Source of the DNA: Pocillopora damicornis
Taxonomy: Eukaryota
NCBI RefSeq assembly: GCF_003704095.1
Contig: NW_020847647.1
Location: 1 to 61,873 of the forward strand
Direction: 5' to 3'
DNA length: 61,873 bases
Below are positions 1-61,873 of this stretch, in pieces (position 1 is the first letter of the stretch; each line of letters opens with the position of its first letter). Made by a program: the position numbers and the translations under genes. The notes below the pieces were generated by a model, which worked only from the letters and a program-made list of their open reading frames with translations, ran no database searches and was not told the origin of the DNA.

Positions 1-1085
1 ATAAGAATCCATGTGACTCATGGCGAAATCAAGCGGATTATTTCCTTTCAGAAGGGAGGAGAAGTTTGTAAATTGCGCCCTCATTTCCTCCAAACCTTCT
101 CTGATGTGTTATCGGGTGATATTGCTCCTGAGCATGTCACTTTTCAAGAGTATCTTGGGGACTTTCAAGACTTTGTGGAACTTCCTTCAGATGCAACGCT
201 CGACAATGACATCAAAATCCGAGCCGTAACATTAAAATCGCTAAAACAGGTACTTTCTGTCTACAAATGCAGTGTGCAAAAAAAGCATATCACAGTAATA
301 ATAAAATAAAGAAACAAGTAAACTATGTGATTATGTCAAAACAGGCATGAACGGCAAAAAAAACATCCATGTCCAATCAGACCGTCAATTTGCTCATGAA
401 TGAGTGCGAACCTGTCATTATTTATCTATATTTAACACATTCAGCTCATTCACTGATAAATATAATACACAAGGATTAGTGAAATGCGTTCGATCTATAT
501 TAGGAATAATTTCCAGTTTTGATCCAGTAATTTCGGATTTTCATCTCTTCTGTGGGTTTATCTCGTGTATTATCTCTCAATCAGTAAATAATGCGTGAAG
601 ATAGTGTGATACAGACAAAACGTCACTAAAAGGTCTTTCATTTCCTTGGATAAAATAGAGACGGTTACAGATGGCAAATGATTGGCATACTATTAATGTT
701 TGTTGTACGTTGGCTTCACATATTTATCTGAGCAGTTAAGCTTTAAAAGTACCTTAATAACCTGTCAGTAGGTCATTTTTTCGTATCTTTAAGCATTAAT
801 TAAAATATTTTGCCACATTCCTCCCTAGGCTGCACAAATATCTTCCGCTGAGATTCAACAAGACATGGAACTCCAACGGTGGCCCCGATTGTGGCCCCAT
901 TGTCACTTATTGTATCCATGTTTTCCAATACATGATTTAGGGCCGGGTTCGCCGATGTTTCCAAGGCTTCATCCAATCAAAATAAATACTACATACCAAC
1001 TTTGGAGCCCAGTCAGCAAGATAAACGATGGTTGCATTGAACGTCATTCGCACAATAATATAGTAAATTGTAAAGGGAATTTCAA
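1..1085 (+). CDS. Partial gene, copy A: ubiquitin/PB1-like N-terminal domain plus start of a divergent FGF/IL-1-like beta-trefoil (5' end outside window, 3' end lost in gap 1086-1185)
   Basis: Exon <1-249 (HGEIKRIISFQKGG...FQEYLGDFQDFVEL...KQ|gt, phase 0) splices in frame to the exon starting at 829 (ctag|GCT; AAQISSAEIQQDMELQRWPRLWPHC...TTYQLWSPVSKINDGCIERHSHNNIVNCKGNF). It is clearly paralogous to the minus-strand copy at 1186-4137. Confidence 0.7.
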
Positions 1086-1185
1086 NNNNNNNNNNNNNNN
1101 NNNNNNNNNNNNNNNNNNNNNNNNNNNNNNNNNNNNNNNNNNNNNNNNNNNNNNNNNNNNNNNNNNNNNNNNNNNNNNNNNNNNN

Positions 1186-4137
1186 TCAGCATTTTTCACC
1201 AATGTTGCTTTTCCAGTGTGATCGCAACCCAGGTATAGGTTCTTATCGTTCTTGTTTTGGAACATGGTGTAACTCCAGTAGTAAAGGGGCAAAAAGATAC
1301 ATTTATCGTCGAGTGGCACTCCAATTTGTACCTCCTGTTAAGGTAGAAAACTAGCAAATCCAACCTTATTCTCTGTTTTTTTAAGTTAGACTTTTACTAA
1401 TCATAGAGATGACAGAAGAAGTAATCAAAACTTTAAGTGGAACCATTTTCCTTGTAAATTATTTGATAATAAGTTATCAGTTTCAACATAAAACTTGGTT
1501 GTTACAGATAAAAAAATCAAGGCCCGGCGGGATACCCGTGCCTCTAAGCATCTATCGAGGTCAAAACATGTGTAGTTGTGACACGGATGTTAGTAACCTA
1601 AAGTTAAGCTAGGTCCAAACATTAAGATGGAATAATTACAACAGGCCAACTTTAATTGGTGAGATTGTAGCACAATGTCAGTCAGTCAGTCAGTCAGTTG
1701 GTCAGTCAGTCAGCCCGTCAGTCGGTCAGACAGTCATTCAGTCGGTCGGTGAGTCAGCTAGTAAGTCAGTCAGTCAGTCAGTCAGTCAATCGGTCATTCA
1801 GTTAGTCAGTCGATTGGTTATTCAGGCAGTTGGCTGTTCAGTCGGTCAGTCGGTCGGTCAGTCAGTCAGTCAGTCAGTCAGTTAGTGGGTCATTCAGTCA
1901 GTCGGTCATTCAGTCAGTCGGTCATTCAGTTAGTCAGTCGGTTGGTCGGTCGGTCAATCTTTAGAAACAGGACGTAAGGTGCTAAGGGAACTGTAGTGTT
2001 CGTCGATGGGGTGGGAGTATCATATGAGTTGATAATGTGAATTGGCCCCGTAAAGAGTTCTTAAACTTAAAGCTGCTACTTACTGTTGAGGTAATGTCCT
2101 GTCCTTCTGCATTTCCAGTCAGTACATAGTCCTTTCTATCTGAACTATTTTTAAACTGAAGCGCCACGTAGAAGGTCAAAATGCTTGTTTCATCAATAGC
2201 TTTCATAACAGCTAAAGGAAGTGAAGAAAAAAACATTTGTAATGACCAACTGTTTGCTGACATGGATAGGATTCAATGGATTACTTGAGCATGTACATGT
2301 GTTAAGTCAAAGGGGAGTTTAGTTAAACAGGCCGAGGAATGTCAGACTATAGTAATGAAGATGACAGTAATGATAGAAATGATGTTATAATGTCAATGAT
2401 AATTATTATAATGAGAATGTGTAGATAGGGAAAATTAAAACGACAACGAGAACGGAGACAATGACGATGACGACGACTATGGTAATAGTGATGGTGATGA
2501 TGATGATGATTTCCCAATCATGTCCTTGTTCTTGCTAAAAAGTCGTAACGTCAAACTTACTGTTAATTCCTCCGTTGAAATTTCCTTTGCAATTCACTAT
2601 ATTAGTCTGCGAATGACGTTCAATGCAACCGTCGTTTATCTTGCTGACTGGGCTCCAAAGTTGGTATGTGGTATTTTTTTTGATTGGATGAGGCCTTGAA
2701 AACATCGGCGAACCCGGCCCTAAATTGTTTATTGGAAGCCATGGATACACCATGTGACAATGGGGCCACAATCGGGGCCACTGTTGGGGTTCCATGTCTT
2801 GTTGAATCTCAGCGGAAGATATTTGTGCAGCCTAGGGAGGAGTTTGGCAAAATATTTTTAATTAGTGCTTAAAGTAAAAGTTTAAAATAAACGTTAACAA
2901 GTGTTAATAGTATATCAATCATTTGCCACATGTAACCGTCTCTATTTTATCCGAGGAAATAAAAGACGTTTTATTGACTTTCTGTCAGTATCACACTATC
3001 TTCACGCTTTATTTACTGATTGAGAGATAATACACGAGATACACCCAGAAAAGAGATGAGAATCCAAAATTATTGGATCAAAACTGGAAATTATACATTG
3101 GATTTTGCTACGCCGAGACAAAAATATCTCGGCATTCCTAAGGTAGATCAAACGCACTTCACTAATCCTTGTGTATTATATTTATCAGTGAATGAGCTAA
3201 ATGTGTTCAATACAAATAAATAATAACAGGTTCGCACTCATTCATGAGCCAATTGACGGTCTGATGGGACATGGATGGTTTTTTTGCCGTTCATGCCTGT
3301 TTTGACACAGTTTTCTAGATGTTAGTTATTTTCCTTCTTACTTTAGGTACATTTACTGCATGTTTATCGTCAATAAAATAATATGTACTTATTGACTTCA
3401 TAGGAGAGACGTAAGGGTAAATATTTGGCTGAGGTCATGAAGAATCAAATATTCTCTCTTTTTGCCCGGACCTAACTCGTTCAATATCATACGACCGCCA
3501 CGTTATGTCTTTTTACATTTGCTTCCTGCCTTTTGCATCGTGCATTGCCGTACGTGCGTAATTTCTAGGACCCTCCCGCACCATCTCGTACGGCCCTCTT
3601 ACGGGGATTTTTTAAAATCTTTCAATAAAAGCCTTTGCACGCGCAGATGCTTCCGAAAAGATGAATCAAGTTAAAAGAACGTCAATTTCAGGTCTTCTGA
3701 CACAATGTTGCTTCACTAGAACATCTCATGAGGTACCCTGCAAATGAGCAGTATTTTATTTATTTATTTTTTAACTTTCCATGCCTATAGGCTCCTGTTT
3801 CTGGCTATTTGGCCGTACTGAGCTGAGATTAAGGATATTACTGTAAAACGTGTATACCTTGTTCTCGTTCTTTAGAATGACTATGGCTTTCAGCTTGTCA
3901 TTTTCTTCCAACCCTAGGTCATGTTTGACTTCCACATATTCATTGAAGTTGTGATCAAATTTCTGAAATTTAACATTCCCCGGAGCAACATCTTCTGAGA
4001 GAATATCAGAGAAGGCCCTTAGGAAATGATGACGAAAGGTTTTCAAATCGTCTCCCTTCTTAAAGCGTATAATGCGCTTAGATTCCCCAAAGGTCACTAG
4101 AGCTTCAAGTTTACTCTCCTTTCCATTGCTCAATTTC
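1186..4137 (-). CDS. Partial gene, copy B: ubiquitin/PB1-like domain plus divergent FGF/IL-1-like beta-trefoil
   Basis: In-frame GT-AG exons: 4137-3858 (LVTFGESKRIIRF...FQKFDHNFNEYVEV), 2831-2561 (..YQLWSPVS..VNCKG.., phase 1), 2211-2084 (VMKAIDETSILTFYVALQFKNSSDRKDYVLTG.., phase 0) and 1334-<1186 (EVQIGVPLDDKCIFLPLYYWSYTMFQNKNDKNLYLGCDHTGKATLV). The last three exons have the phase-1/phase-0 intron pattern of FGF cores, with CxF and YLG..G motifs. The start exon was not resolved and the 3' end runs into the gap. Confidence 0.7.
1677..1956. repeat. Degenerate (GTCA)n/(GTCG)n tetranucleotide microsatellite (intronic)
   Basis: Tandem gtca/gtcg units are directly visible. Confidence 0.95.
2350..2510. 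repeat. Degenerate (GAT/GAC/AAT)n trinucleotide low-complexity tract (intronic)
   Basis: atgatgatgatgat and gacgacgac runs. Confidence 0.7.
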
Positions 4138-4992
4138 CTGTGAGGCAAAAAAAGTTTGTTTGAAAAGTTTGGTAAGATAATTGTCAGTAGCGTAAGACTT
4201 TCGCGTACCCCAGTCCTATTCAGATAACCACTTTCGTTGAATTTCTCTTATTGAAAAGAAGTGACATGGAAAGGAGATGAAAGGAATATGAAAAAAAGGT
4301 TATGATTGCAGATACAGGCAAACCGTTACACGGGTATGATCACGCAATCTCCATCCCAAGGACCGTTCACCATCCATCGCCGTGTTTTAGAACCAAAACA
4401 ATGAAAGGTCAGCCACATTTAAGGAAAAAATTTCGAGGGGAACTGATCTTTTTAATTAATTGCTAGTCGCAAATCATAACTTTGCAGCGCGCCTATTGAG
4501 CTATCCAGTTATACATTCTGAAGAAATGTGTTGGGACTCTGATGTGTTGGGACTATGCAGTGCAATCGCATAAGAGTCCCAAGGTAAGAAAGATAGCTTG
4601 TAGTTGTCGAAGTCGGATCTAAAGATTACATGGATGTGTGTGACTAAACTTGGCAATTTGTACGACAGTGTCTCTCTTTTCTCGATACTGTTGTGAAACC
4701 ATTCCCAACTTAAGTTTTTGGACACAGGAACTGTTGGCGGTGACTAAGTCCTTGTATTGGTTTCAACCTTGAATTGAGCCTGCTGAACAGGAAACTTAAT
4801 TTTTTTTACGATCCCTTAAAGACGCCAAAGTGAAACACGTTTTGTTCTAAGAGTGAGTTAATCATTAGAGACATTAGGCATATTCGAGACATTCAACAGA
4901 ACCTTTTCAACGAACAATCCTTCTTCTAAGACTCCCTTCCCTCCTCCCCCCTCCCCCACGTATGCAAATCAAAAGAAATAAAGAAATAGGGA

Positions 4993-5491
4993 CCTTAATA
5001 TACCCCGATTCCGTTAGACGGCTTTTACCGGTAGCCGTACGCGTGAAATGTGGCGGGAAGATCAACTCAAGTAACCCGGACTAAACATGGGAGGACTGGG
5101 AATAACTTCTTGACTTTTGGTAAACATGGCGGCTTTTTGGCCACGTAAGTTTGATAAAGTTCACAAAAATGGTTGGTACAATATTGTCTGCCAAAGGAAT
5201 TTTTCGACTTCGAACCAGTCTCCACCATTCGTTGCTTCCAATGACCAGTCAGCTGGTTTTCGGTAAATTTTTCTTGGTATAACACCGATTAGGCAGCACA
5301 AATTGACTTACACTTTCGTTCTTTTGACTTTTACACTTTTCTGAACGTCTTTTGCTGGTCTTCTCAGCGCGTTAAATGCCATCTACCCTGGATAAACGGC
5401 TAGGTTATCTTGTAGTGAGATGATGTCATTACCAAATATGGTCAAATATGGCGCCCTACCCGTACCCGGTGCGGGTCGGGGTATCTTAAGG
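4993..5491. mobile_element. MITE-like element bounded by terminal inverted repeats
   Basis: ccttaatataccccga (4993-5008) matches the reverse complement of tcggggtatcttaagg (5476-5491) at 15/16. No transposase ORF inside. Confidence 0.45.
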
Positions 5492-7289
5492 CTTTGTTTT
5501 GTTTAGAATCACGGGGTTTAGTTTCTTAATCATCTTGGATACGAGAAAGAATGTTTGAAGATCAGTATTATTTTTGAGCCTAATCAGGAGCCCATCATGG
5601 CTCCTGGCTTAATACAGTAGCAGGATTTTTCTTATTTTCCGCCAGAAAGATTATTTATAGCCACTTGATTTACCTCTTCAGAACCGGAATTCCATCGTGG
5701 TGACGCAATGATTTGTTTCCATATAGGGTTCCTAAGGCCCTGGCACCCTGAAACACCCAAGATCTCCGTGTAATAACTGCCATACTACTGTGGAAGTTTC
5801 AGAAGAACTGTCGGTAACAAATCATATAGCGATACCAAATAAGCACATCTGATCAATGATCATAATTATGGTAAAATTCGCCTAAAAGACACTCCAGATA
5901 CATTTATTTCTACAACAGACCTTGAATCCAGTGTAACCAATAGTTTACAACGACTTGCACGACGTTGATGCCTTATTTACGGGAGTGTTGTGATAAATAA
6001 GCAGTTACGCGACAAAAAAAATTATAGCGAAACTTGCAGAGCGTGGACAATCAGAACGTGAAAGTTAACATTTACACTTTGAAAACCAGAGAAGCGAATT
6101 GTACGAAACACTTGTTGCCATCCCACTCTGCCCGCCGGGTTTTTTCGGTGACAGTTTTTCTTAGAGGTGGGTTAAAGCTTACTTAAGGTTACATTAATTT
6201 CTTTCGCTTAAAGAAAAGGAAATCACATGCGATAAGCCCTCAGACCTCAGACAACGAGATTCATTACAGTTCATTGAGCTGATCCTCTTATGCAACCTGG
6301 TTGAATCTCGCTCGTAAGAAAAACTCACGAGAAAGACGAACTGACGCTGGAAGAGCTTGAAGAGCACAAGGAAAAGTTAACGGTAAGTATGATTCCCCTC
6401 AATCAATAAAACATCGCCATCTTTAACTCGGGTTTATCTTTCTTTTAAAGGGAACCGGTTAGACATTACTGATTTGTCTCACTTTCCTTTATTCCCTATA
6501 TAAACACGAGGAGAAACTGGACAGAAATTATAACCTGTGTTAAGGTAGCCTTCAGAATAAGCGTCATTTTCTGCTTTTTTAGACGAGTGGAGTCACACAC
6601 GAGAAGAAGGGCGCGAGTCTCACCCTTCGAGCGCGTATCGCTCCTCGTGTCTCACTTGATCGTGCATAATGGAGCACCGGAGAAATAAAGAACAGTTTCT
6701 GAGGCCGCATAAGTTTTTGCATTCGTTTTCAGCTCCTTCTCACTTGGTGCATGGTATACCCCAGACGTACACTTCGTAATAATTACGAAGTTATGTTTAT
6801 ACGAAGTTATGGTTATACGAAGCTCTCAACCGCCTCATGGATAAAATAATGACTGATAACACTAACACTGAGATCTTAAAGCAAAAATGTCCAATCCCAA
6901 CTTAAATCTGACGTGTGTAATGGTAGCTGGAAGAAGACGTTTTGCAATGTTTGTTAGCGCATATGTGTACTTACTCTTCTTTATTCGCTGTTTTCCGGGA
7001 TACTCTAACAAGCGAGGTCGGTCGGGCACAGCGCATTCTGAAATACGAGTTGGTCTGCTACGTTTAAATAGCTGTCCTGTACTTGACAGGAAGCTATTGA
7101 CCCATTTCTGACCCAATTTCCGACGCCGACATTGCTCGCGTGCTTATTGATTTGTCATGGAAACAGTTGGGCCCCAACAGAAGTTTTCTAGTTTGCGGAA
7201 ATATCGGAAAGCCATGTACTGTCACGGAACTTTTGTTCCAATATTCATATTTTCTTTCCTTGAGCAGTGCCACAGCGAATACTTCTTTC

Positions 7290-10200
7290 ATGTGAAAGTG
7301 CCAGAGAGATAAGACAGATCCTCAAACCTTATTATTATCTTAGAACCGGATAAAGTTTGAGATTAACGTTTTGAATGAGTCACCAGCTTTAATTAAAAAC
7401 AGCCCTGTTAGAAGTAGATTCAGTAGTTTCTCGGTCAATCCACAACACTCCTCACGATGCGTTGAAATGTATGTTTAAATATGTAGAAGTCTTGAAACGC
7501 TTTGTCCCTTTGTGCGCTTACCAATCAAGAAATAAGCAGTAACAAACTCAAATAAGCGTTGTTCGCTGAACCCCATTGTTAATATTTTCCTTAAGAGGAC
7601 GTTTTATTGTCGTCCGGTTTCGTTTTCTTTCCTGAAAATGCCTCATGCGTTACAGCTGCGTTGCACGGTCCGGGGTTTGTCTCTCAGAACTGTACTCATT
7701 TTTACCTCATGTAAATACAGTAGTTAGAGGTCGTGAATAATTGAAATGCTTCCCTCTTTTGTGTAGAGTTTTCTTCGGCACAACCCGTCTTTTCACCGGG
7801 AAATTTTCTTGAGAGGTAACAAAATATACTGTCTTGGAGAAGGGTTGCTTTATAGTTCGATTCCGGGAAAGATAACACAAGGGAATATTCCAATCTTTTT
7901 AAGGTTATGCGGGGTCATATTTAGCTGTAGGTGATTTACGTCAAATTTTACGTTGATGAGTGTTTAGATGTCAGTACATTCACCGAATGGTTACTTATAA
8001 ATGTTGTAGATGATCACTAACTTTTGCGAAATAGATATCAAATTTAGTGGGATAAATCAAATAAACATTGAAGCAGTAAGTAAGTACTGTATTGTCTTAT
8101 TATTGTTCCGCACTCACGACAGATGAATTGACCGGAAAGGTCTACGAATTGCAAAAATTGTTGAGAATTCGTCCAAGATTATGTACTGTGTGTGCTATAT
8201 CATGGCAGTGAAACAAGGATTGCAAGTAATAAATAACTCCATAGAATCACGCAAAATTATGCTAATGAAGTAATGCAATAAAAAAATCAGACAGAGTCAT
8301 AAATAACGAGAGCATAGTTTCAAGTTAACCGTCTGTTGGGGCAGAGGTCTGTTTGGGTCTGGAGTGCGACTGCGACCACAAACGCGAACACCGCTAACGC
8401 GAGTTTCTGCGCGGCTTTCCAGTGGAAAGATCGAGCAAACCACCATTTATACCAGTGATATCTCTCTCTTCTTCGAAGTAACACCGAGAAACAGTTGGAC
8501 TACATGATGGGATTGATAGAAGATGATATTTGAAGAGGAGACAAACAGATGCCACAAAGATACNNNNNNNNNNNNNNNNNNNNNNNNNNNNNNNNNNNNN
8601 NNNNNNNNNNNNNNNNNNNNNNNNNNNNNNNNNNNNNNNNNNNNNNNNNNNNNNNNNNNNNNNAAGTTGTGAAAAAATCAATTTTCATATTCTCATTTCT
8701 ATAGGATCAAATGCATTCACGCTATCGTATCTTTGTGGCATCTGTTTGTCTTCTCTTCAAATATCATCTTCTATTAATCTCATCATGTAGCCGAACTGTT
8801 TCTCGGTGTCATTGCTAAGAAGCGATGAGATATCACTGGTATGAATGATGGTCTATGCGATCTTTCAAGAGGAAAGCCGCGCAGAAACTCGTGTTAGCGG
8901 TGTTCGTGTTTGTGGTCGCGGTCGCACTCCAGACCCAAACAGACCTCTGCCCCAACAGACGGTTAACTTGAAACTATGCTCTCGTTATTTTTGACACTGT
9001 CTGAATTTTTTATTGCAATACTTATTTAGCACGATTTTGCGTAATTCTATGGAGTTATTTATTACTTGCAATCCTTGTTTCACTGCCATGATATAGCACG
9101 CACAGTACGTACTCTGAAACGAATTGTGTAAAAATCTTAAAAATTTTTGTATTACGTAGACCTTTCCGGTCAATTCATCTGTCTTGAGGGCGAGAAAACC
9201 GAGAAAACATTTAGTTGTTTTACACGTCTTCTAAGTATTTAAAACTTGTAACGCTCTACATTTCTAGGATTCTTGGTACTATGTACGTCGTGCATGAAAA
9301 CTCATTTTCCATCGAAGTTTTCGTTCTCTGGCTCGGATAAATTGGATTTCGTACGTGATATTGTTCGTGGAAGCCGGCAACTAAAAGGGAAAAAAGTTTC
9401 TTTGTTCTCTTTCCCAGAATTCAGTGCCTGAATTGAATTGATTTTTTCCGCTTGTAACGCTAACTTCGTAACTGACTGCTTGAGTTTTATCAAAAGTACT
9501 TACTGACTCAAGGTCTATTTGAATTATTCCACTTGATTTGATATTTATTTCGCATCATCCACAACATTTATAAGTAAATGCTGTGGTGGCTAAAGTGTTA
9601 CTCAGAACTACTGACATCTAAATACTCATTAACTTAGAACAATAACAAACGTCAATTTGACGTAAAGCACCTTCAGCTAAATATAACCTCGCATAACCTG
9701 AAAACAATTGGATTATTCCCTTGTGTTACATTTCCCGGAATCGAACCATAAAGAAACCTTTCTCCAAGACAATATATTGTGTCACTTCTCAAGAAAATTT
9801 CCCAGTGAAAAGACGGGTAGTGCCGAAGAAAACTCTACACAATAGGTCTTAAAATTAGGAAGCATTCCAATCATTCACGACCTTTAACTACTGTTACATG
9901 AATTAATTTTGAGTGCAGTTTTGATTGATGATTGAAAACGGAAATGACGGGACAAACCCCTTACCGTGCAACACGGCTGTAGCGCCTGAGACATTTCAGG
10001 AAAGAAAACGAAACCGGACGACAATAAAACGTCTTCTTGAGGAAAATATTAACAATGGGGTTCACCGAACAACGCCTATTTGAGCTTGTTACTGCTTATT
10101 TCTTGATTGGTAAGCGCACAAAGGGACAAAGCGTTTCAAGGCTTCTACATATTTAAACCTACACATCGACGCATCGTGAGGAGTGTTGTGAATTGATCGA

Positions 10201-10339
10201 GAAACTACTGAATCTATTCCTAGCAGGGCTATTTTAGAGCTGTTGACTCACTCAAAAGGTTAGTCCCAAACTTTATCCGGTTCCAAGCTAATAATAAGAA
10301 GGTTTGAGGATCTCTTCGCTCTCTCCGACATTTTCATAC
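7290..10339. repeat. Large inverted duplication, arms about 7290-8563 and 8727-10339, centred on gap 8564-8663
   Basis: Collinear reverse-complement matches along the arms, e.g. 'cagatgccacaaagatac' / 'gtatctttgtggcatctg' and 'gatcctcaaacctt' / 'aaggtttgaggatc'. The right arm has about 300 bp extra near 9190-9485. Confidence 0.9.
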
Positions 10340-20793: not shown

Positions 20794-22415
20794 TCATGCC
20801 AAACTTCGCTTGAATTTGCTCAGAATGGTTTTCCGGCCTTGGCGAATTCCAGGCTCCTGCCCTTCTTGTTCACCTGTCGATGGCACAGAACATATGATAA
20901 CAATGAACACCTAAATCAATTTTCCCTACTTTTGTCTAAGAAAAGGGGTAATAAAATATCTAAAGAAAATGGGCATATAACTGGGCTGCGTCAAGTTGGT
21001 GCCTGGCGTCACTTGGGGGTATTAACGAACTGCTAAAAAAAAACTCAAAAATCAATGGCGTTTTTGGTCAACTTTTCATATTTATTTATTTTCTTTTTGG
21101 ATAGTTTTGTCTCTAGTGTCATTCTTATTTATGTTTATTACGTTTTACGTGCGATCCTACACAAGTTTAAAAATATGATCATATTCTTGCTAAAGATTGC
21201 AGCCTACACTTTTCATGTGGGAAAGTATAGGATGTGTCACACTGAAAAGACAAAAGACAGACTTTCTATAGAAGGGAAAGATGACTAAACATTGAGTTAC
21301 CTACCACCAGTGATGGCGACTTTCAGCTGTTTGTAAGTACATCCCAGTTCATTGACTGCCTGGCAGAAGTACTTGCCTTTGTCTCCTGGTTTCACATTCA
21401 CGAGCGACAAAGAGCACGTTTTGACCTTGCGAGGCTTTTTATCACAGTTGAATTCGCGAATGAAGGAGTAGTTTACGAACAACTTGATCAGATTAGGCTC
21501 CAAATAGGAGCGAAGATATGGTGGGAATCCCAACGGCATTTTTGCAGTGCATACCAATGTTACATTCGAGCCGAGCTGTACGGTGACTGCTTTGTCCAAG
21601 TGTTTCATTTCAGATGTATGAGGCGATTTGTCAGGCGTTGTTACATAAAAGTCCACAGATGGTGAACCTACAGCACAACATTGCGAGATTTTTAAAACAC
21701 TGTCAAAATCCTATGAGGCAAGCAGTTATAGGATATTTTACAATGAGCACTTGAACGCCCAAAGCGTTTCACTATGTGCTCTCAGCTCTAGCAAAATCTA
21801 GTAACTTATGTGTTTTAAAATTATTTCGAATGAGGGAGTTTAAAAATCGATTGGCATATAACATTGTAACCTGTGTTACTTTTGATCTTAATTTACTAGT
21901 GTTATGCTGAGCTTCCTTAACTGATTTTCTTCCAATTTGAGTTTTCCTCAATATTAACCAATTGTATTTGTACTTTAACAGCCTGTTGCACACCCGGCTT
22001 GGTAAAGCAGCAATTTAGGCTCCTTTCTCTGCTTCTGACCAGAAGTAGACGATGGGTCAATGATAAAGAAAGGGCTCTCCTAAGAAACAACAAAACTAAG
22101 AAGGACGTTTTTAACAAAGCTATGCTATCTTTTAAAAAGACGAGTCCAATTTGATAGCTTTGCGACCCTTTTTCTATTCCTTTTTTTGTACTCCATGGCG
22201 TGGCATGTACGACTAGTCAGAGCCTATAAGTCTTACTTGCCAAGTATATCTCAACATTTAAAAGGAAAAATACCGATTCATTAAAAAAAAGGGGGATATT
22301 TTTTCTTACCTCCATAAGCCTCTGTACCACAAGTCTGGCACCAGATAGGCCTGCCAAGGGATGCAATGATAGCAACTGTAACAATGACGGAGTACGATGC
22401 ATAGGCAACCTTCAT
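20794..22415 (-). CDS. Secreted single-Ig-domain protein with no TM (3 coding exons, about 182 aa)
   Basis: Exon 22415-22310 is a signal peptide, MKVAYASYSVIVTVAIIASLGRPIWCQTCGTEAYG (phase 1). Exon 21667-21305 is an Ig domain (VTLVCTAK...DKGKYFCQAVNELGC, phase 1). Exon 20873-20794 is a basic tail, GEQEGQEPGIRQGRKTILSKFKRSLA*. Minus-strand AATAAA at about 20520-20534. Read-through of exon 2 also stops at once (21297), so both forms lack a TM. Confidence 0.8.
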
Positions 22416-23157
22416 ATCTGTAACGAGGAAGATAATAGAGAACACAGACCCCAAAAGTTTAAGTTTGACCGATTTGGTATACTTATCAATCCGACAGGTA
22501 TACCTTTTATAGGATATCTCTTCTCCATATTAGTAAATTCTTGACGTAACGTTCTTTCCAAAAATATTTATTACTCGATACACAACATAGGATTAAAGGA
22601 AAGTTTAACTTGGCCGTTAAAGTGAAACGGGGTAGCACCAATAGGAAACTCAAAAGTTCTGGCGTGTGAATTAACGAGAACTGACAAACCGAGGTCCATG
22701 TACAACCTCCTGATTCGTTGAATTGCGAGAATTAAAGTTCAGAAATATAGTTTGCACGTGACAAATCTTTCTCTTTAACTGACTTTCCCGACAAAATAAA
22801 CAGTGACGTCTTTCATTTTCTACGTCAATCAACATCAATGTGATGCATTTGTAATGAATCACAATGACAAGGTTGTGATATGTGCTTGGAGGCTTTCAGG
22901 TAAAAACTGAAACTTTGCTCATATAACCAGATCCATCAATTCGCAGAAACTAGGACTTACGTAAAAATGGTGATTACAAAGCTTACTTAGTCACTTTTCT
23001 TATTTGCCCTATGCATTTAAGGTTTTGTATCCATTTTGTTTATTATCTCTTTGACATTTCCGTTTCCTACGCCAGATGATATGCACTCATCGACTGCGAA
23101 CATCATTATCGAGAGCAAAAATACTCTCCCGTTCGGCCCAACCAGGCTCGCATAGAA

Positions 23158-25277: not shown

Positions 25278-26624
25278 ATGAATAATGGGTTGACATTTCG
25301 TGCTTGGTCTTTGAGTCGACAAAAATACTTGGTCTTAACTGAAGATGGTGGAAAGAAGACTCCTAAAATCAGAGCAACAGGCGATGATGAAGGAAAAGAA
25401 AGTAGGTGTAACTGTTCCTTAATTTCGTATTGGTTTTAATTGGTTACAAATTGATAAACTTTGAAATACTTTGCAGGCGGTCCGACCTTTCTGAAAGAGT
25501 GGCGGTGATGTTCACCGGCTTAGCCATGGTAAAAACTCTTACAACACAGCGGCTAGGCCAATAAATGTGTTCGAACTAAATTATCTCATAGATGACACAG
25601 GTTTTAGAACTGAATTTTTTTTTTCAGGTCAATTCACAATGGTACTGAATACCGCAATCGAAACTTTTAACGAAAATTCCGCCCACTTAGTGTTTACAGC
25701 ACAGGACGGTCAGAATTATGCTTTGATTACCGACTTAAAAAATGGAACTGTTTCGTTTACGGTCAGTATAAACACATGTAACTTTAAAGGAAACCAAGGT
25801 GAAATTAACGAATGTTTATCTAACTCCGATTTCATTAAAAGCGACTCATTAGTGTGAGAGATCGGTTAAGTGCGTGTGCGGGCCTGAAAGAAATTAAACT
25901 AGTTACAAAAAGGGCGCCGCTTCAAGTACACTTACGAAGATACTTTGAATTTCAATGCACTGTATTAAGTTCAGATCGCAAGTCTAATGAAGATAATCTT
26001 GTAGTGTTTATGAAAATAAGATAAATATCGAATTTGGTACAAAACATAAAGTTTCGAAGCTTGGTAATGATTTTGATAAAACGAATTTGCAAACTTTCGT
26101 ATCCTCTATCGTTTTGCATTTTTCGTAACTTTGTACAGGGGCCTTTTTTTGAAACAGAAATCAAGAAGAAACAACTATTTCTGTATTGGTTAAGAATAGA
26201 AAACTGAGTAGAGAAGCTGCATTGATCTTTTACGGAAACTTGCCAAATTAAACAAACTTTTCCGTGAAAGAGAAACTTCTGTTCAAACCAGATAGCACTT
26301 TTAGTTCACTGAGGTGGTTCTTTTACATATTTAAGGTGTTCCACTTCAGCCTCAAAGCATTCTGTAAAAAAACTTCTCTAAAAAACTATGATTTTTTTTA
26401 AAATTAAAAATGTTCTTTCCTTCACACAGAAGTACGAAAAATCTTCAGAACATATTGGAGCCTTCGTTAAGGAGTCATTGGGTGAGCAAGGACCAACCTA
26501 TGCTCTTAGGGTTGCACAGAGTCAGAGTTGCATTGCTGCCAACAAAGATGGCTTTCTGTCGCTGAGACCATTTGAGCGAATTTATCCTCATCCAGACACC
26601 ATTTTTGTTCTATCTAAAGTTTAA
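25278..26624 (+). CDS. Leaderless divergent FGF-like (beta-trefoil) protein, 150 aa, 3 coding exons
   Basis: Exons 25278-25401 (MNNGLTFRAWSLSRQKYLVLTEDGG..IRATGDDEGKE, phase 1), 25628-25761 (SQFTMV..HLVFTAQDGQNYALITDLKNGTVSFT, phase 0) and 26430-26624 (..AFVKE..TYALR..CIAANKDG..DTIFVL*). Size, intron phases 1/0 and the FxxE..Y..IAxNKDG..F-hydrophobic pattern match the FGF core. No signal peptide. AATAAA at 26781 and 26875. Confidence 0.75.
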
Positions 26625-57477: not shown

Positions 57478-58200
57478 TTACAGAATATCCACCTATGATA
57501 GATAAGATAAAGAATATAATGCTAAGTTTAGAGAAAAATGGATATTATGAGGCAAAAATATAATTATTATAGACGAGCTATTTGTTTATGCATTACGTCG
57601 TTCATCTGTTGGCTTCTAGCTTTGTGCCTCTAGTTTGAAAAATCGATCATGGATAAAAGTTCTATCTTCCATCTCCTGCACCCTTAAAGGAAAGCTAAAA
57701 GGGTGTTAACCTGTGTTTTGTTATTGTTGTTGTTTTTTTCTCAATGTCCGTGCTCGTTCTGAAAACAACTTTTACAGCGGCTTCCTCTGTTAAGTTACCC
57801 TCTTCCCCTACAGGAAAGAGTTGTAGCAAATGCGGTCTTTGGCAGAGAGGTAAATTGTGGAGTATAGACTATTAAATATTTACCCTTGACTGCACGATAC
57901 CTTAAGTGTTTCCTTTTCCTTTTCAGAATCCATTAGGTACTCCATACATAGGCGTTTAAACTCTCTATTTGTCAACTCATGATCGTGGATACAATTGGGC
58001 TAACACATACATACTTTATTTTGTAACATAAGAAAAAACTACAAGTGCTTTTTGTGAAAACCTTTATTTTTACTGACGAGACTGTGTAACACAACCACAA
58101 AAATATCTTAGCAGTGAATAATTACTGCAAGAAGACGTGTCATCAAATGAGAGTCTATATCTATTAAGAGTTTCAACCATGGCCAAACGAAAATGAAAAT

Positions 58201-60596
58201 TTAATCTTCAGGCATTTTCTGCCCCATATTTTTCCATTGCATCGGAGTGAACACGCTTTGACCTTTGATCTTTGACGCAAACCAATCTCCAAACACCCAG
58301 CCCCTCCACACTTGGGCGGCACCCCCTGATCGTCCGCAGCACAGCACCATGAATACACTCTCTAGAGTGAGGAACGGATAATAGACATTCTGAGTAATTT
58401 CTAAATGTTCGACCTTCAACCTAGCTAGAAGGAAAAACCAGGCCGGTTTGTGTTTTTATGAATTTTTTTCATTATTGTTCAAACTATCATCTGTGCCTTA
58501 GACAATGAATATGGCTCGATCAATTGTAAAACTGTAAACAGCGTATTTGCATGATGACAGAGAATGGTAGTAATCTATTGACCCAGTAAATCTTTAAGTT
58601 TTTACACCTCGCTTAAGTACAATCCAAATTTTTTATGACCATTACTTTGTAATCCATTTAAAAAAGGTCAACATCTAATTGCCAAATTTTTCATCCCCCC
58701 GCAGAACGATTACGTCACATTGATGCCGAATACTTACTGTTAACGTTGTAAGGTTTCATCGCTTTCCCCTCATGTTTGAGCTTTAGGTTGTCAGCAATGT
58801 ACTTTCCTTGTGTCTCAGCTCCATACGCCAGCTTGATCTCTGGAACATCGTTACAGTCCCCGATCGCGTACACATCCGGAACATCTTTCACTTGGAGAAA
58901 GTCATCGACATTTAGACGACCAAGTCGATTCATTTTATCTCCTGTAATCAAAGGCAAAGTATTTTGGCCTTATTCACTTATTTATTGCGTTTAATCCCCA
59001 GTGTGTGTATCCATTTACAAGAGCTTCATCTAGTCATGTGGTGTTTTTTTCCAGTTAAATGCAGTGGAGTACAGTAACTGGCGTTTTTACAACCTGAGCA
59101 CAAATCATCATAGAAACATCTAGAGTCCTGTTAAGTCGCCGAAACGTACGTCAGAGTCTGTCACCAACAACTGTCCTCGGATAATCAGACTACACGATCG
59201 AATGAATCACGTATACTGTTCTGTTATATTGATCACGACCGGTTAACCTCGTGGTCTTCCACTACATGTACATGAGTTCCTTCTTAAGTCAATTGCGGAC
59301 GTTATCAGTTCACCAATATTCGCCAATAAAATAAGACTGACCTAGACTTTTCCTGTAAGCTTCGGTGTTCACTTTTAGACCAGTGCAAGGAATGACCAGG
59401 TCTACTTTCATTTGCCTCCCTTTATCGGTGACTAGCATGACGTTTTGATATCCCTTTTCTTTTACTTCGTCCATATTCATCACTCGCTCCCCTACATGGC
59501 AAAAGATAAATCATGTTTGCTAGAACCAAGAAGAAGTATCCAACTCATTAATATTAAGCAGACGAGTTGACAGGTAAGCTGTCATTAAGCTAGCCAGTCA
59601 GCCACCAACCAGCTTTATAGACAGACAGACGAACAGACCTTACAGATAGATTAACTGACTGACAGGTTGTTAGACAGGCAGGCAGGCAGACAGAAGAGCG
59701 GACAGATAGACAGACTGGCAAACAGAAAGACATTAGACAGAGGCTGAGAGACAGAACGGCATAGACAGACAAGGGTAGACACACACTGCCTAAGTTCCCT
59801 GTCCCCTACATTCTTGCAACGTTTTTGTGAGTGTTGTTATTTTCATTTTTTATTCTTTGTAAGATCGAGTAGGAAAAGACTGAGAGAGTTAACATAAACA
59901 AACTGTATAGCATAAATGTAGCAGCGACATACCAAGAAACATGGTGACCCCTAAACTTTCAAGCTTTGCCTTGATCGTGGACTGAAAGGTCTCGTTAACT
60001 TCATCATTGACTAGATTTTCCCTGGGATGTATGAGATACACATCGGCCTTGTCTTTGTAATCCTCCATGATGTCTCCAGCTATTTCCACTCCAACAGCTC
60101 CCCCACCTACAACCCCGATCTTCATGGCGTCTTTTACCTGAATAGCAGCAAAGAATATACGAGGATTGAAGCTTAGAAGGTAAGGACTGACTGTATTGTG
60201 CATCTTGATTTAACTGTGAATGTTCAAAAATTGCAATCCACACTAATCTTGTTCATCCTTATATGTTTGACTCCCTTTTCAAACAAGCAGTAAATAGCAA
60301 TAAGGCCTAAATCGGACATTCCGCATCGTCTGAGCTTCATTCTCTCGTGGTAACACTTACTAGCTTGGTATACTTCTCGTAACGCTGAATGGCTTTGTCC
60401 TTGTTTGTATCCAAAGCAATTTTCGCAGGAAATGGGCCACCAGTGCCAGTTGCAAGTACGAGGTCATCATAAGCAATTTTCTCTCCAGTTTCCAGCATTA
60501 TCGTCTTCATGGATAGATCAATATCAACGACTTTCCCTTGCTTGAAGCTTTTGCCAAATGTTGGTCCGTAGGGAATGAAACACTTTTTGGCAAACC
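58201..60596 (-). CDS. AIFM2: Ferroptosis suppressor protein 1 / apoptosis-inducing factor 2 (partial; first coding exon missing, probably in gap 60616-60715 or beyond)
   Basis: Exons 60596-60361 (GFAKKCFIPYGPTF..KQGKVVDID..YDDLVLATGTGGPFPAK), 60137-59933 (VVGGGAVGVEIAGDI..VYLIH), 59491-59342 (DLVIPCTGLKVNT), 58941-58738 (VYAIGDC) and 58361-58201 (GRSGGAAQ..KGQSVF..W). These motifs closely match FSP1/AIFM2. Confidence 0.92.
59590..59780. repeat. Degenerate (GACA/GGCA)n microsatellite (AIFM2 intron)
   Basis: agacagacagac and ggcaggcaggca runs. Confidence 0.85.
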
Positions 60597-61873
60597 CTGT
60601 GTTGAAGCAATGTTTNNNNNNNNNNNNNNNNNNNNNNNNNNNNNNNNNNNNNNNNNNNNNNNNNNNNNNNNNNNNNNNNNNNNNNNNNNNNNNNNNNNNN
60701 NNNNNNNNNNNNNNNGATTTTATCAGCGCCCATGTAACACAACTTGAATATTCATGTATTTTTGATAAAGCTCCGATCGGCGTGTTGAGCTTTTATTCTT
60801 GTCGGCTTTTGCTTTTATCTGCATAGATCGTGCGCTTTCGTTAGCTTCTCTACTGTAAGAAAATGTTTTCAGTTCGTCTAAGAAATGCAGCTCCTTTCTT
60901 AAGCGCTGGTATTGCGGCTGGATCGGCAGTTTTGCTTGGATATCACGCTTGTTATGGCACAGGTAATGATACGAACTATGTTTTCGCTTTCACCGCTTAT
61001 GTTTGTTTTGCGAGTATGAATGTTTTTTGCAGTAAACATAGTTAAACAGCTTAGTAAGACATAAATTGAGCGTTTTTGATCGAAAACAAACCAAAATAGA
61101 CGCACTGTAGCAAGCTTAATTGACTGTAATTTGCATGTGCTTAAATAATCAAATCGTTCACGCGTTTTCTTTACCAGACAATTGTGCACAAGCAAAAGCA
61201 TTTTATTAGCATGTCTGCTTTAGCTCATGCATGAAATTTCAAATTGTACGTTAAAAATAAAATTTTAATTTCGTTCCTTCAATCGTAGTATATGTATTTT
61301 TACCTAATCGTGTGTGCCTTAATAAAGAAAGCGTAGCGTGACTCTGTTGACACTTAGCGCCGGAGTAAGGAACACCTTGTTCTGACAGTAGTCTATGTCA
61401 CGCAAACGGGCCGACTTCTTTCAGTCGTATATAACTTAAGTTTGTCATATAACTAACTCTTCTACATGACTTCATACGTTTTATGTCTTTCCACTATTCG
61501 ACGAACTGCCATTACCTAAATCTTTGATTAACTTTGTCTTTCATTTAACTGAACACGTGCTTCGATTATACTGAAGTGCAAATGGCAAAGTCGAACTGCT
61601 TTCCAATATGAGCAACAACGAATTCTGTGTTTTCTGAACCACTGTGTTTCGCTAAGAGCGATTTCCTTAACAAGCGCACGACTGTATCCCTCAGTTTGGA
61701 ATTGTATGGTGTTGTTTACAATTTTATAATATCAAATACTCAATTTTAATTACCATATTTCTTTACCTTTACCTGATAGATTGATTTTCTCAGTAGTGTC
61801 AATGATATTTTTTCCTTCTAATTCAAAAGCTGTCCATGCTCGAGATGAAAACGTTAAAAGTCTAAAGGACACC

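Follow-up and report, generated by a model that had tools for sequence, protein, structure and literature searches.

The minus strand of a 61,873-nucleotide stretch of the Pocillopora damicornis genome (NCBI RefSeq assembly GCF_003704095.1, contig NW_020847647.1, positions 1 to 61,873; the window) carries a genuine, spliced, and intact gene, here termed gene A. Its product is predicted to join an N-terminal ubiquitin-like (Ubl) beta-grasp head, through a linker, to a C-terminal 12-strand beta-trefoil tail. Gene A belongs to a real, expressed, and previously unannotated coral family with this architecture. We tentatively read its product, at somewhat short of an even chance, as a leaderless protein of the FGF/IL-1 branch of cytokine folds that its head retains in the cell until damage sets it free, with no obligatory cleavage.

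Exons A, B, C, and D of gene A lie on the minus strand in a single open frame, separated by GT–AG introns of phase 0 (A/B), phase 1 (B/C), and phase 0 (C/D) (Table 1). Every motif quoted in the initial annotation of this locus was found in the gene A sequence. Splicing was assessed over positions 1–6000 with Logan contigs from four sequencing runs, two on record as RNA and two only guessed to be RNA; contig depth is no measure of expression level. The C/D and B/C joints were recovered in all four runs, the A/B joint in two, and a joint from exon A to an upstream exon (5674) in three. Loose contig ends before 1186 carry the frame on into the adjoining N gap in all four runs. The complete A-B-C-D join is present in P0001, a public transcript-type protein of 332 residues that is identical to the window over exons A and D (100%) and agrees with it at 81 of 90 residues in exon B and 41 of 42 in exon C; P0001 served as the stand-in for the gene A protein in structure prediction. 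One of the four runs, X3, points the other way, with an unspliced contig over the A–B intron and no A/B joint. The joints in RNA contigs, together with full-length P0001, bear out the initial annotation in splicing the Ubl-like exon to the trefoil exons, and the open frame, joints, and P0001 rule out a pseudogene.

The N-terminus, sought from transcripts, was placed by contig joints and P0001 in an exon 0 with its ATG at 5783. Exon 0, the 5′ untranslated region (UTR) exon, the in-gap stop codon, and an inverted paralog at 1–1085 all lie beyond what the initial annotation had described. A single contig (1/4 runs) uses an alternative donor at 5312 (5312–5673, minus strand); translation would then start at an ATG farther downstream and give a different N-terminus of 24 residues, rich in Lys and Arg. 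The C–D intron contains a degenerate (CAGT)n microsatellite at 1671–1962.

AlphaFold2 (AF2) modeling of P0001 with a 13-row alignment returned a compact domain at residues 46–123 and disorder at 1–43 and 126–178, with a predicted template modeling score of 0.49, so that no fixed packing between the domains is shown. Modeled alone from 40 rows, the head adopts a beta-grasp with a mean predicted local distance difference test (pLDDT) score of 86, and Foldseek and VIA matched it to SUMO, Ubl, RA, UBX, and FERM-F0 structures. The initial annotation had called this domain ubiquitin/PB1-like. The beta-grasp fold is upheld by the prediction, but PB1 is not singled out: Ubl, UBX, ABD, RA, and FERM-F0 entries tie at VIA Z scores of ∼8.8 to 9.4 (Ubl, UBX, and ABD at 9.3–9.4), and NBR1-PB1 (8.4) and Par3-NTD (8.3) fall about 1 below the Ubl entries. 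Pfam searches with single exons, P0001 to P0003, and 13 aligned members gave no PB1 match and no other significant family. We take the PB1 domain to be a beta-grasp with a basic Lys and an acidic OPCA cluster; the fold and the charged columns are present here, at the lower PB1 Z scores. The basic pair is conserved (K57 in 36/40 rows and R58 in 38/40; P0001 numbering), as is the acidic cluster (D98 in 33/40, E103 in 38/40, and E106 in 35/40, with D110 also in the conserved acidic set). No Pfam PDZ match to the head was found, its fold being a beta-grasp instead. The C-terminal di-Gly of a ubiquitin-type modifier is likewise absent; the head closes with a hydrophobic strand followed by a Lys/Asn tail, and GG occurs within the last 45 residues in just two of 40 rows. 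A two-copy head complex predicted without an alignment scored 0.00, which speaks neither for nor against self-association. Searching Protein Data Bank (PDB) sequences with the head profile gave chance matches to designed Ig chains and, at E 0.18, a match to the BILBO1-NTD, none of them significant.

The tail is predicted by AF2 to form twelve strands at P0001 residues 184 to 327 (pLDDT ∼78–93), arranged as a beta-trefoil. Here too the initial annotation, which proposed an FGF-like trefoil, holds for the fold but not for the choice of FGF, which is tied with lectin trefoils. Foldseek ranked FGF18 first, with HA33, FGF8, FGF12, FGF1, FGF2, IL-18, IL-1b, and IL-33 within approximately one order of E, and FHF1, FHF2, and fascin were also among the fold matches. 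VIA aligned the tail with FGF1 at Z 17.0 to 17.9 and a root-mean-square deviation (rmsd) of 1.9 to 2.5 (for example, Z 17.4, rmsd 1.9, 126 aligned residues) and with FGF18 at Z 16.9 (rmsd 2.1, 125 aligned). Because the Foldseek and VIA ranks differ, the trefoil branch is not chosen by fold alone. PDB sequence searches with the queries P0001 and A1 returned nothing significant. The Pfam FGF family (PF00167) matched two of 96 members, both below the cut-off (best E 0.0094, 16.4 bits versus a cut-off of 24), and P0001 had no FGF match; a Kunitz trefoil family matched one of the 96 with similar strength. Arf matches in Pfam (best E 0.00038, 3/13 members) appear to reflect a short P-loop look-alike in strands 10 to 11 and were set aside.

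Searching with a family profile recovered 222 clusters within an E limit of 0.001, and none of the 150 listed exceeds 336 residues. The 172 proteins retrieved comprise 29 with both domains, 46 with the head only, and 97 with the trefoil only; many of the one-domain rows are fragments the size of an exon, and the domain hidden Markov models were built from the same 172-protein set. Most rows carry no species name; those that do belong to Stylophora, Pocillopora meandrina, Oculina, Desmophyllum, Orbicella, and Montipora, all stony corals, and the closest named relatives of gene A are from Stylophora pistillata. Contig L004 has the same four-exon layout, and L001 is its spliced transcript. The fusion that had been considered unusual is thus confirmed as an architecture, but as a family trait of stony corals rather than a singleton. 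In a trefoil tree rooted at its midpoint, head-bearing rows occur throughout the main 38-row clade, and the most distant group is a head-less FES subfamily (P0137, P0141, P0165–P0167, and P0172; P0165 has FEN). This subfamily is homologous to the rest (hhalign, 99.7%; two of its six rows are also in the query alignment), and in four of its members the N-terminus is conserved, basic, and almost devoid of acidic residues, with the look of a mitochondrial presequence. Its best hit in the PDB was an FGF7/FGF1 chimera at E 0.68, which is not significant. No description of the family was found in the literature searched, locus tags included; most subscription journals and coral-transcriptome supplements fell outside that scope.

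On balance we favor the FGF/IL-1 cytokine branch for the trefoil, on the strength of its intron phases, the weak FGF profile matches, and the FES motif of the sister subfamily. A phase-1 intron directly precedes trefoil strand 4, and strand 7 ends at a phase-0 intron; FGF and IL-1 genes are presumably interrupted at the same strands. The two central introns of conserved phase that mark the IL-1 superfamily are thus present as judged by phase (1, 0). Among ten other genomic loci, eight have a 119 to 122 nt central exon running from phase 1 to phase 0 with a consensus donor; its phase rests on that donor, other donors scored alike, and the two exceptions, L004 and L022, escaped the automated scan. 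The last three introns of IL-1beta are of phases 1, 1, and 0 (PMC4880838), and FGFs are reported to keep two core introns, for which no phases are quoted (bioRxiv 2024.08.30.610304).

Several observations weigh against this placement. By VIA, the top matches of the tail are HA33-type lectins (Z 18.5–18.9, rmsd 2.2–2.6), with fungal lectins also near the top, and the cytokines rank below them (IL-33, Z 15.7, rmsd 2.5, 134 aligned; IL-1alpha, Z 15.6, rmsd 2.7, 136 aligned). Language-model neighbors of the tail (Atlas) are trefoils of the ricin-B-like lectin, inhibitor, and fascin kinds; clusters of FGF or IL-1 are missing among those listed. A deep family profile (A3) found nothing among PDB sequences within an E limit of 10. 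The strand 9 motif is FQN in the gene A protein; across 40 rows it is FES in three and FRS or FKS in six. In paracrine FGFs, strands 10 and 12 flank a basic site for heparan sulfate. Here residues 300 to 320, which cover that region, have a mean net charge of −1.55 and are positive in only 3/40 rows; being acidic on average, the region offers no heparin patch. N-termini that look suited to an intracellular task, described below, point in the same direction.

The lectin resemblance also raises the prospect of a cytosolic beta-trefoil lectin that would bind glycans on damaged vesicles, symbiosomes, or microbes while its head recruits machinery. The structural and Atlas neighbors fit such a protein, as do the conserved exposed aromatics Y186, W189, Y281, W283, and Y285. 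(The conserved residues W189, Y285, and I324 may match the receptor-binding patch of FGF2, a correspondence given no weight here.) Ricin-B lectins are marked by (QxW)3 repeat ends, and QxW is absent from the core positions of strands 4, 8, and 12, which hold M/V/I223, F277 (39/40), and F323 (40/40); it occurs elsewhere in 11/40 rows, mostly in strand 1. The sugar-binding position of ricin has no Asp here (columns G299, T252, and E201), no ricin or lectin family was among the 25 of 32 Pfam families listed for 96 members, and the intron layout is cytokine-like. We consider a lectin quite improbable.

No signal peptide or other hydrophobic leader was detected in the gene A protein by a hydropathy heuristic, the sole test applied, in line with the pro-IL-1/IL-33-style precursor that the initial annotation had envisaged. 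The exon 0 extension contains five Arg/Lys and one Asp/Glu, with a maximal eight-residue hydropathy of 0.75, and is therefore basic and almost acid free. Among 37 family N-termini, three have a Gly2 pattern and two a strong hydrophobic stretch, and further members have acid-free basic extensions. Signal-anchor-like hydrophobic N-termini were noted in P0032, P0079, P0138, and P0140, and a Gly2 myristoylation-like start in P0023, P0028, and P0090. Such organelle- or membrane-targeting-like starts fit an intracellular job, and the protein may be an adaptor whose head binds a partner (a small GTPase, a second head, or protein-degradation machinery), whose trefoil binds a cytosolic protein, and whose variable first exon directs it to the mitochondrion, nucleus, or membrane. 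FGF11–14 and fascin are trefoils that act on cytosolic proteins in this manner. The missing leader and basic extension, the tie of the head with RA, UBX, FERM-F0, and PB1 and its retention of K57/R58 and D98/E103/E106, the FHF and fascin fold matches, and the whole-protein feature neighbors (plant DUF569 plus Ubl proteins and DCDC1, as leads only) are all consistent with an adaptor. Against it stand a head-less stand-alone trefoil homolog in the same locus and the expansion and cassette swapping of the family, described below, which would suit an outward-facing, host–microbe role. We regard the adaptor as rather unlikely.

The initial annotation had further supposed a trefoil precursor that needs proteolysis in its Pro/Trp linker. 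The linker comparison covered 26 of the 29 proteins with both domains and set aside three whose trefoils are partial. The linkers range from 5 to 67 residues and measure ≤14 residues in seven; Asp is absent from four, and an Asp followed by a small residue occurs in three, at unrelated places, P0001 not being among them. No linker Asp is conserved in the family. The second linker Asp of P0001 is missing from the window allele, and the first is common only to P0002 and P0004. Because of the short linkers, the Asp-free linkers, and the want of a conserved Asp, an obligatory caspase cut conserved in the linker is unlikely, as judged from these alignments, and the supposition is not supported. A pro-cytokine cut by a caspase or another protease in the manner of pro-IL-1beta would accord with the disordered linker, the IL-1beta-like intron phases, and the caspase cleavage reported for SpurIL-1.3 (PMC13736523); given the linker counts, we think it very unlikely.

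Comparison with the inverted neighbor of gene A, paralog B, points to a mosaic history. The two are converging paralogs, and positions 334–1085 match 3307–2575 at 80% of nucleotides overall and at 237 of 257 within the exon, probably as a conversion tract. Nucleotide similarity begins within the intron (334 versus 3307), and the outside matches of the heads differ: that of gene A is 81% identical to P0002, and that of paralog B matches P0004 (Table 1). In exon B, gene A and paralog B are 85% identical, as are P0002 and P0004, and identities across the pairs are 66% to 68%. Duplication of an allele or haplotype at 1–1085 was rejected as an explanation, the heads being only 45% identical and each having its own Stylophora counterpart.

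In head and trefoil trees covering 17 to 18 of 24 two-domain rows (the dropped rows include the most divergent), the P0001 head grouped with group II (100/98) and the P0001 trefoil with group I (100/100). Approximately unbiased (AU) tests, with groups named after the identities had been seen, rejected P0001, P0002, and P0004 together for the heads (p = 1.6e-4) and P0001, P0002, and P0003 together for the trefoils (p = 7.6e-5). By these comparisons, gene A is a chimera: its head belongs to group II, and its trefoil, which the inverted neighbor shares, to group I. Gap-free window DNA joins this head to this trefoil, so the chimera is no artifact of transcript assembly. Heads and tails still covary overall (Mantel rho 0.65, 0/2000). 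P0010 and P0018 have identical heads and 37% identical trefoils; their joint trefoil placement was not rejected (p-AU 0.054, long branch), and a further swap here is suggestive only, as either may be an assembly chimera. The same is possible for P0003, a gene model, as for P0018, a contig product. One contig (1/4 runs) joins 1085 to 2211 on opposite strands, which fits either a collapse of near-identical exons C and D within the gap or the sharing of these exons by both genes. Diversification of the family appears to proceed by exchange of trefoil exon cassettes among different heads. A second N gap in the window (8564–8663) is likewise flanked by a long inverted repeat (7293–8563 and 8727–10336; 79–88% of nucleotides), non-coding as far as seen, which may represent a true palindrome or an error of scaffolding.

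A stand-alone leaderless trefoil gene at 25.3 kb shares the 1/0 intron phases of the gene A trefoil, as the initial annotation had reported. The loose alignment it drew between the two was not significant as a pair (12 of 1000 shuffles scored as high), but the 25.3-kb gene scored 28.3 bits against the family profile over profile positions 7 to 154, a value reached by none of 1000 shuffles. Its sequence thus marks it as a distant head-less homolog of the family, and its product is a candidate FGF1/IL-36-like molecule. Head-to-head with gene A, at ∼11.7 to 19.7 kb on the plus strand, lies a single-Ig, single-pass receptor tyrosine kinase with FGFR/RET-like kinase motifs and a long juxtamembrane region. 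On the minus strand at 21300–22420, a signal-peptide-like exon precedes an Ig domain that is 32% identical to the kinase Ig over 41 residues. The kinase as a functional partner of gene A is a lead only, and a survey of 22 short metagenome loci turned up no synteny of neighboring genes. TRAF3, GCC2, SOX3, ESD, and IL-1R were not recognized in the window, at whose edge gene A lies. Elsewhere in the window lie several mucin-like exons (28363–49000, plus strand), very large and rich in Ser/Thr, in which SEA-like and transmembrane segments occur, and a pyridine nucleotide-disulphide oxidoreductase gene (58200–60800, minus strand), putatively AIFM2/FSP1-like.

Table 1. Features of gene A, its inverted paralog, and the stand-alone trefoil gene in the window.
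Feature	Position	Strand	Basis and remarks
Gene A 5′ UTR exon, 3′ end	6975..7004	-	Loose end behind 5807 in 3/4 runs maps to 6975 beside a consensus donor
Gene A exon 0, ATG 5783, 37-residue N-terminal extension	5674..5807	-	Joint 4136/5673 in 3/4 runs; 97% match to P0001 1-37
Gene A exon A, predicted ubiquitin-like beta-grasp head, group-II type	3858..4137	-	AF2, Foldseek and VIA matches, column counts
Gene A exon B, disordered Pro/Trp/His linker and trefoil strands 1-3, phase-1 end	2561..2831	-	pLDDT <50 at 126-178; joints
Gene A exon C, 128 nt, phase 1 to 0, trefoil strands 4-7	2084..2211	-	Joints, predicted structure
Gene A exon D, trefoil strands 8-12	1186..1334	-	Last ~20 codons and stop inside N gap 1086-1185
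Paralog B ubiquitin-like exon, group-I type	1..249	+	Joint 247/827 in 2/4 runs; 45% identical to exon A, 78% to Stylophora P0004
Paralog B intron and exon B' (829-1085)	334..1085	+	Inverted copy of 3307-2575; rest of gene lost in gap
Stand-alone leaderless trefoil gene, ~150 residues	25278..26624	+	Exons 25278-25401 or 25407, 25628-25761, 26430-26624; phases 1/0; splice consensus only

For the leaderless cytokine-fold protein that we tentatively prefer, the polypeptide would be made without a leader, and its head and N-terminal exon would keep it inside. Conserved opposite charges on the head and variable, targeting-like N-termini suggest such retention or scaffolding. Cell damage or lytic death would then release the protein, which might signal through an Ig-domain receptor, probably without cleavage; IL-1alpha, IL-33, and FGF1 are models for release that needs no cut. 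Both release and receptor are inferred by analogy. A bolder and rather improbable extension is that stony corals hold a third expanded FGF/IL-1-fold branch with a Ubl head in place of PDZ, in which cassette conversion would yield combinatorial heads, tags, and ligands, acting as alarmins through single-Ig kinases such as the head-to-head neighbor. Invertebrate IL-1-type cytokines were found only recently, by a PDZ screen (PMC13736523), and a family with a non-PDZ head would be invisible to such a screen. If the cytokine branch is correct, the family would supply testable candidates for inflammatory or damage signals in coral wounding, bleaching, and tissue-loss disease, and precursors that pair an interaction domain with a trefoil would have at least two origins. 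Were the family one of intracellular adaptors instead, it would still be a coral family lacking annotation, with an unusual exchange of heads and tails among paralogs.

Among known systems, plant DUF569 plus Ubiq_DUF_assoc proteins and animal DCDC1 likewise hold trefoil-type and Ubl modules in one chain (whole-protein feature scores 0.87 and 0.82). DUF569 has a trefoil fold, and the plant proteins have the reverse domain order. Unlike these, the coral proteins have no Pfam match to either family, and the likeness is probably convergent. Ricin-B/HA33 lectins share the highest VIA Z scores and conserved aromatics, but the coral trefoils lack (QxW)3 and the sugar-binding Asp and are only 12% to 15% identical to them. 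FGF1/2 and FGF11–14/FHF provide further likenesses: FGF18 and FGF1 are among the best fold matches, and both sides have two core introns, no signal peptide, and alternative N-terminal exons. Unlike FGFs, the coral family falls below the Pfam FGF cut-off, has a ∼150-residue trefoil without a basic heparin patch, and carries a fused Ubl head; by its defining tests it is not a member of the FGFs.

The closest parallel is IL-1anc (Fontenla-Iglesias et al. 2026, PMC13736523), a leaderless PDZ plus IL-1 trefoil protein found by PDZ screening. According to that report, a small subset of IL-1anc proteins lack the PDZ, the (F/L)ES motif is only partially conserved, and most proteins tested were not cleaved, SpurIL-1.3 being caspase-cleaved; cnidarian IL-1anc loci show synteny with TRAF3, GCC2, SOX3, ESD, and IL-1R. 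The main text mentions neither ubiquitin nor PB1, and in supplementary file 4 Pocillopora, Acropora, and Orbicella appear in genome and credit sheets only and not in the IL-1anc protein table, where stony corals have no entry; its figures may include stony-coral loci. The coral family resembles IL-1anc in being leaderless, in the order of intracellular interaction domain, linker, and C-terminal 12-strand trefoil, in its conserved central introns, in the F-x-S-type strand 9 of some relatives, and in its variable basic N-terminal extensions. It differs in having a Ubl head instead of PDZ, in the restriction of FES to three of 40 members, gene A not among them, and in its expansion in stony corals. 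The family is a parallel of IL-1anc and, by the defining tests, not a member, and the Ubl-headed trefoil represents a new architectural variant of leaderless trefoil proteins.

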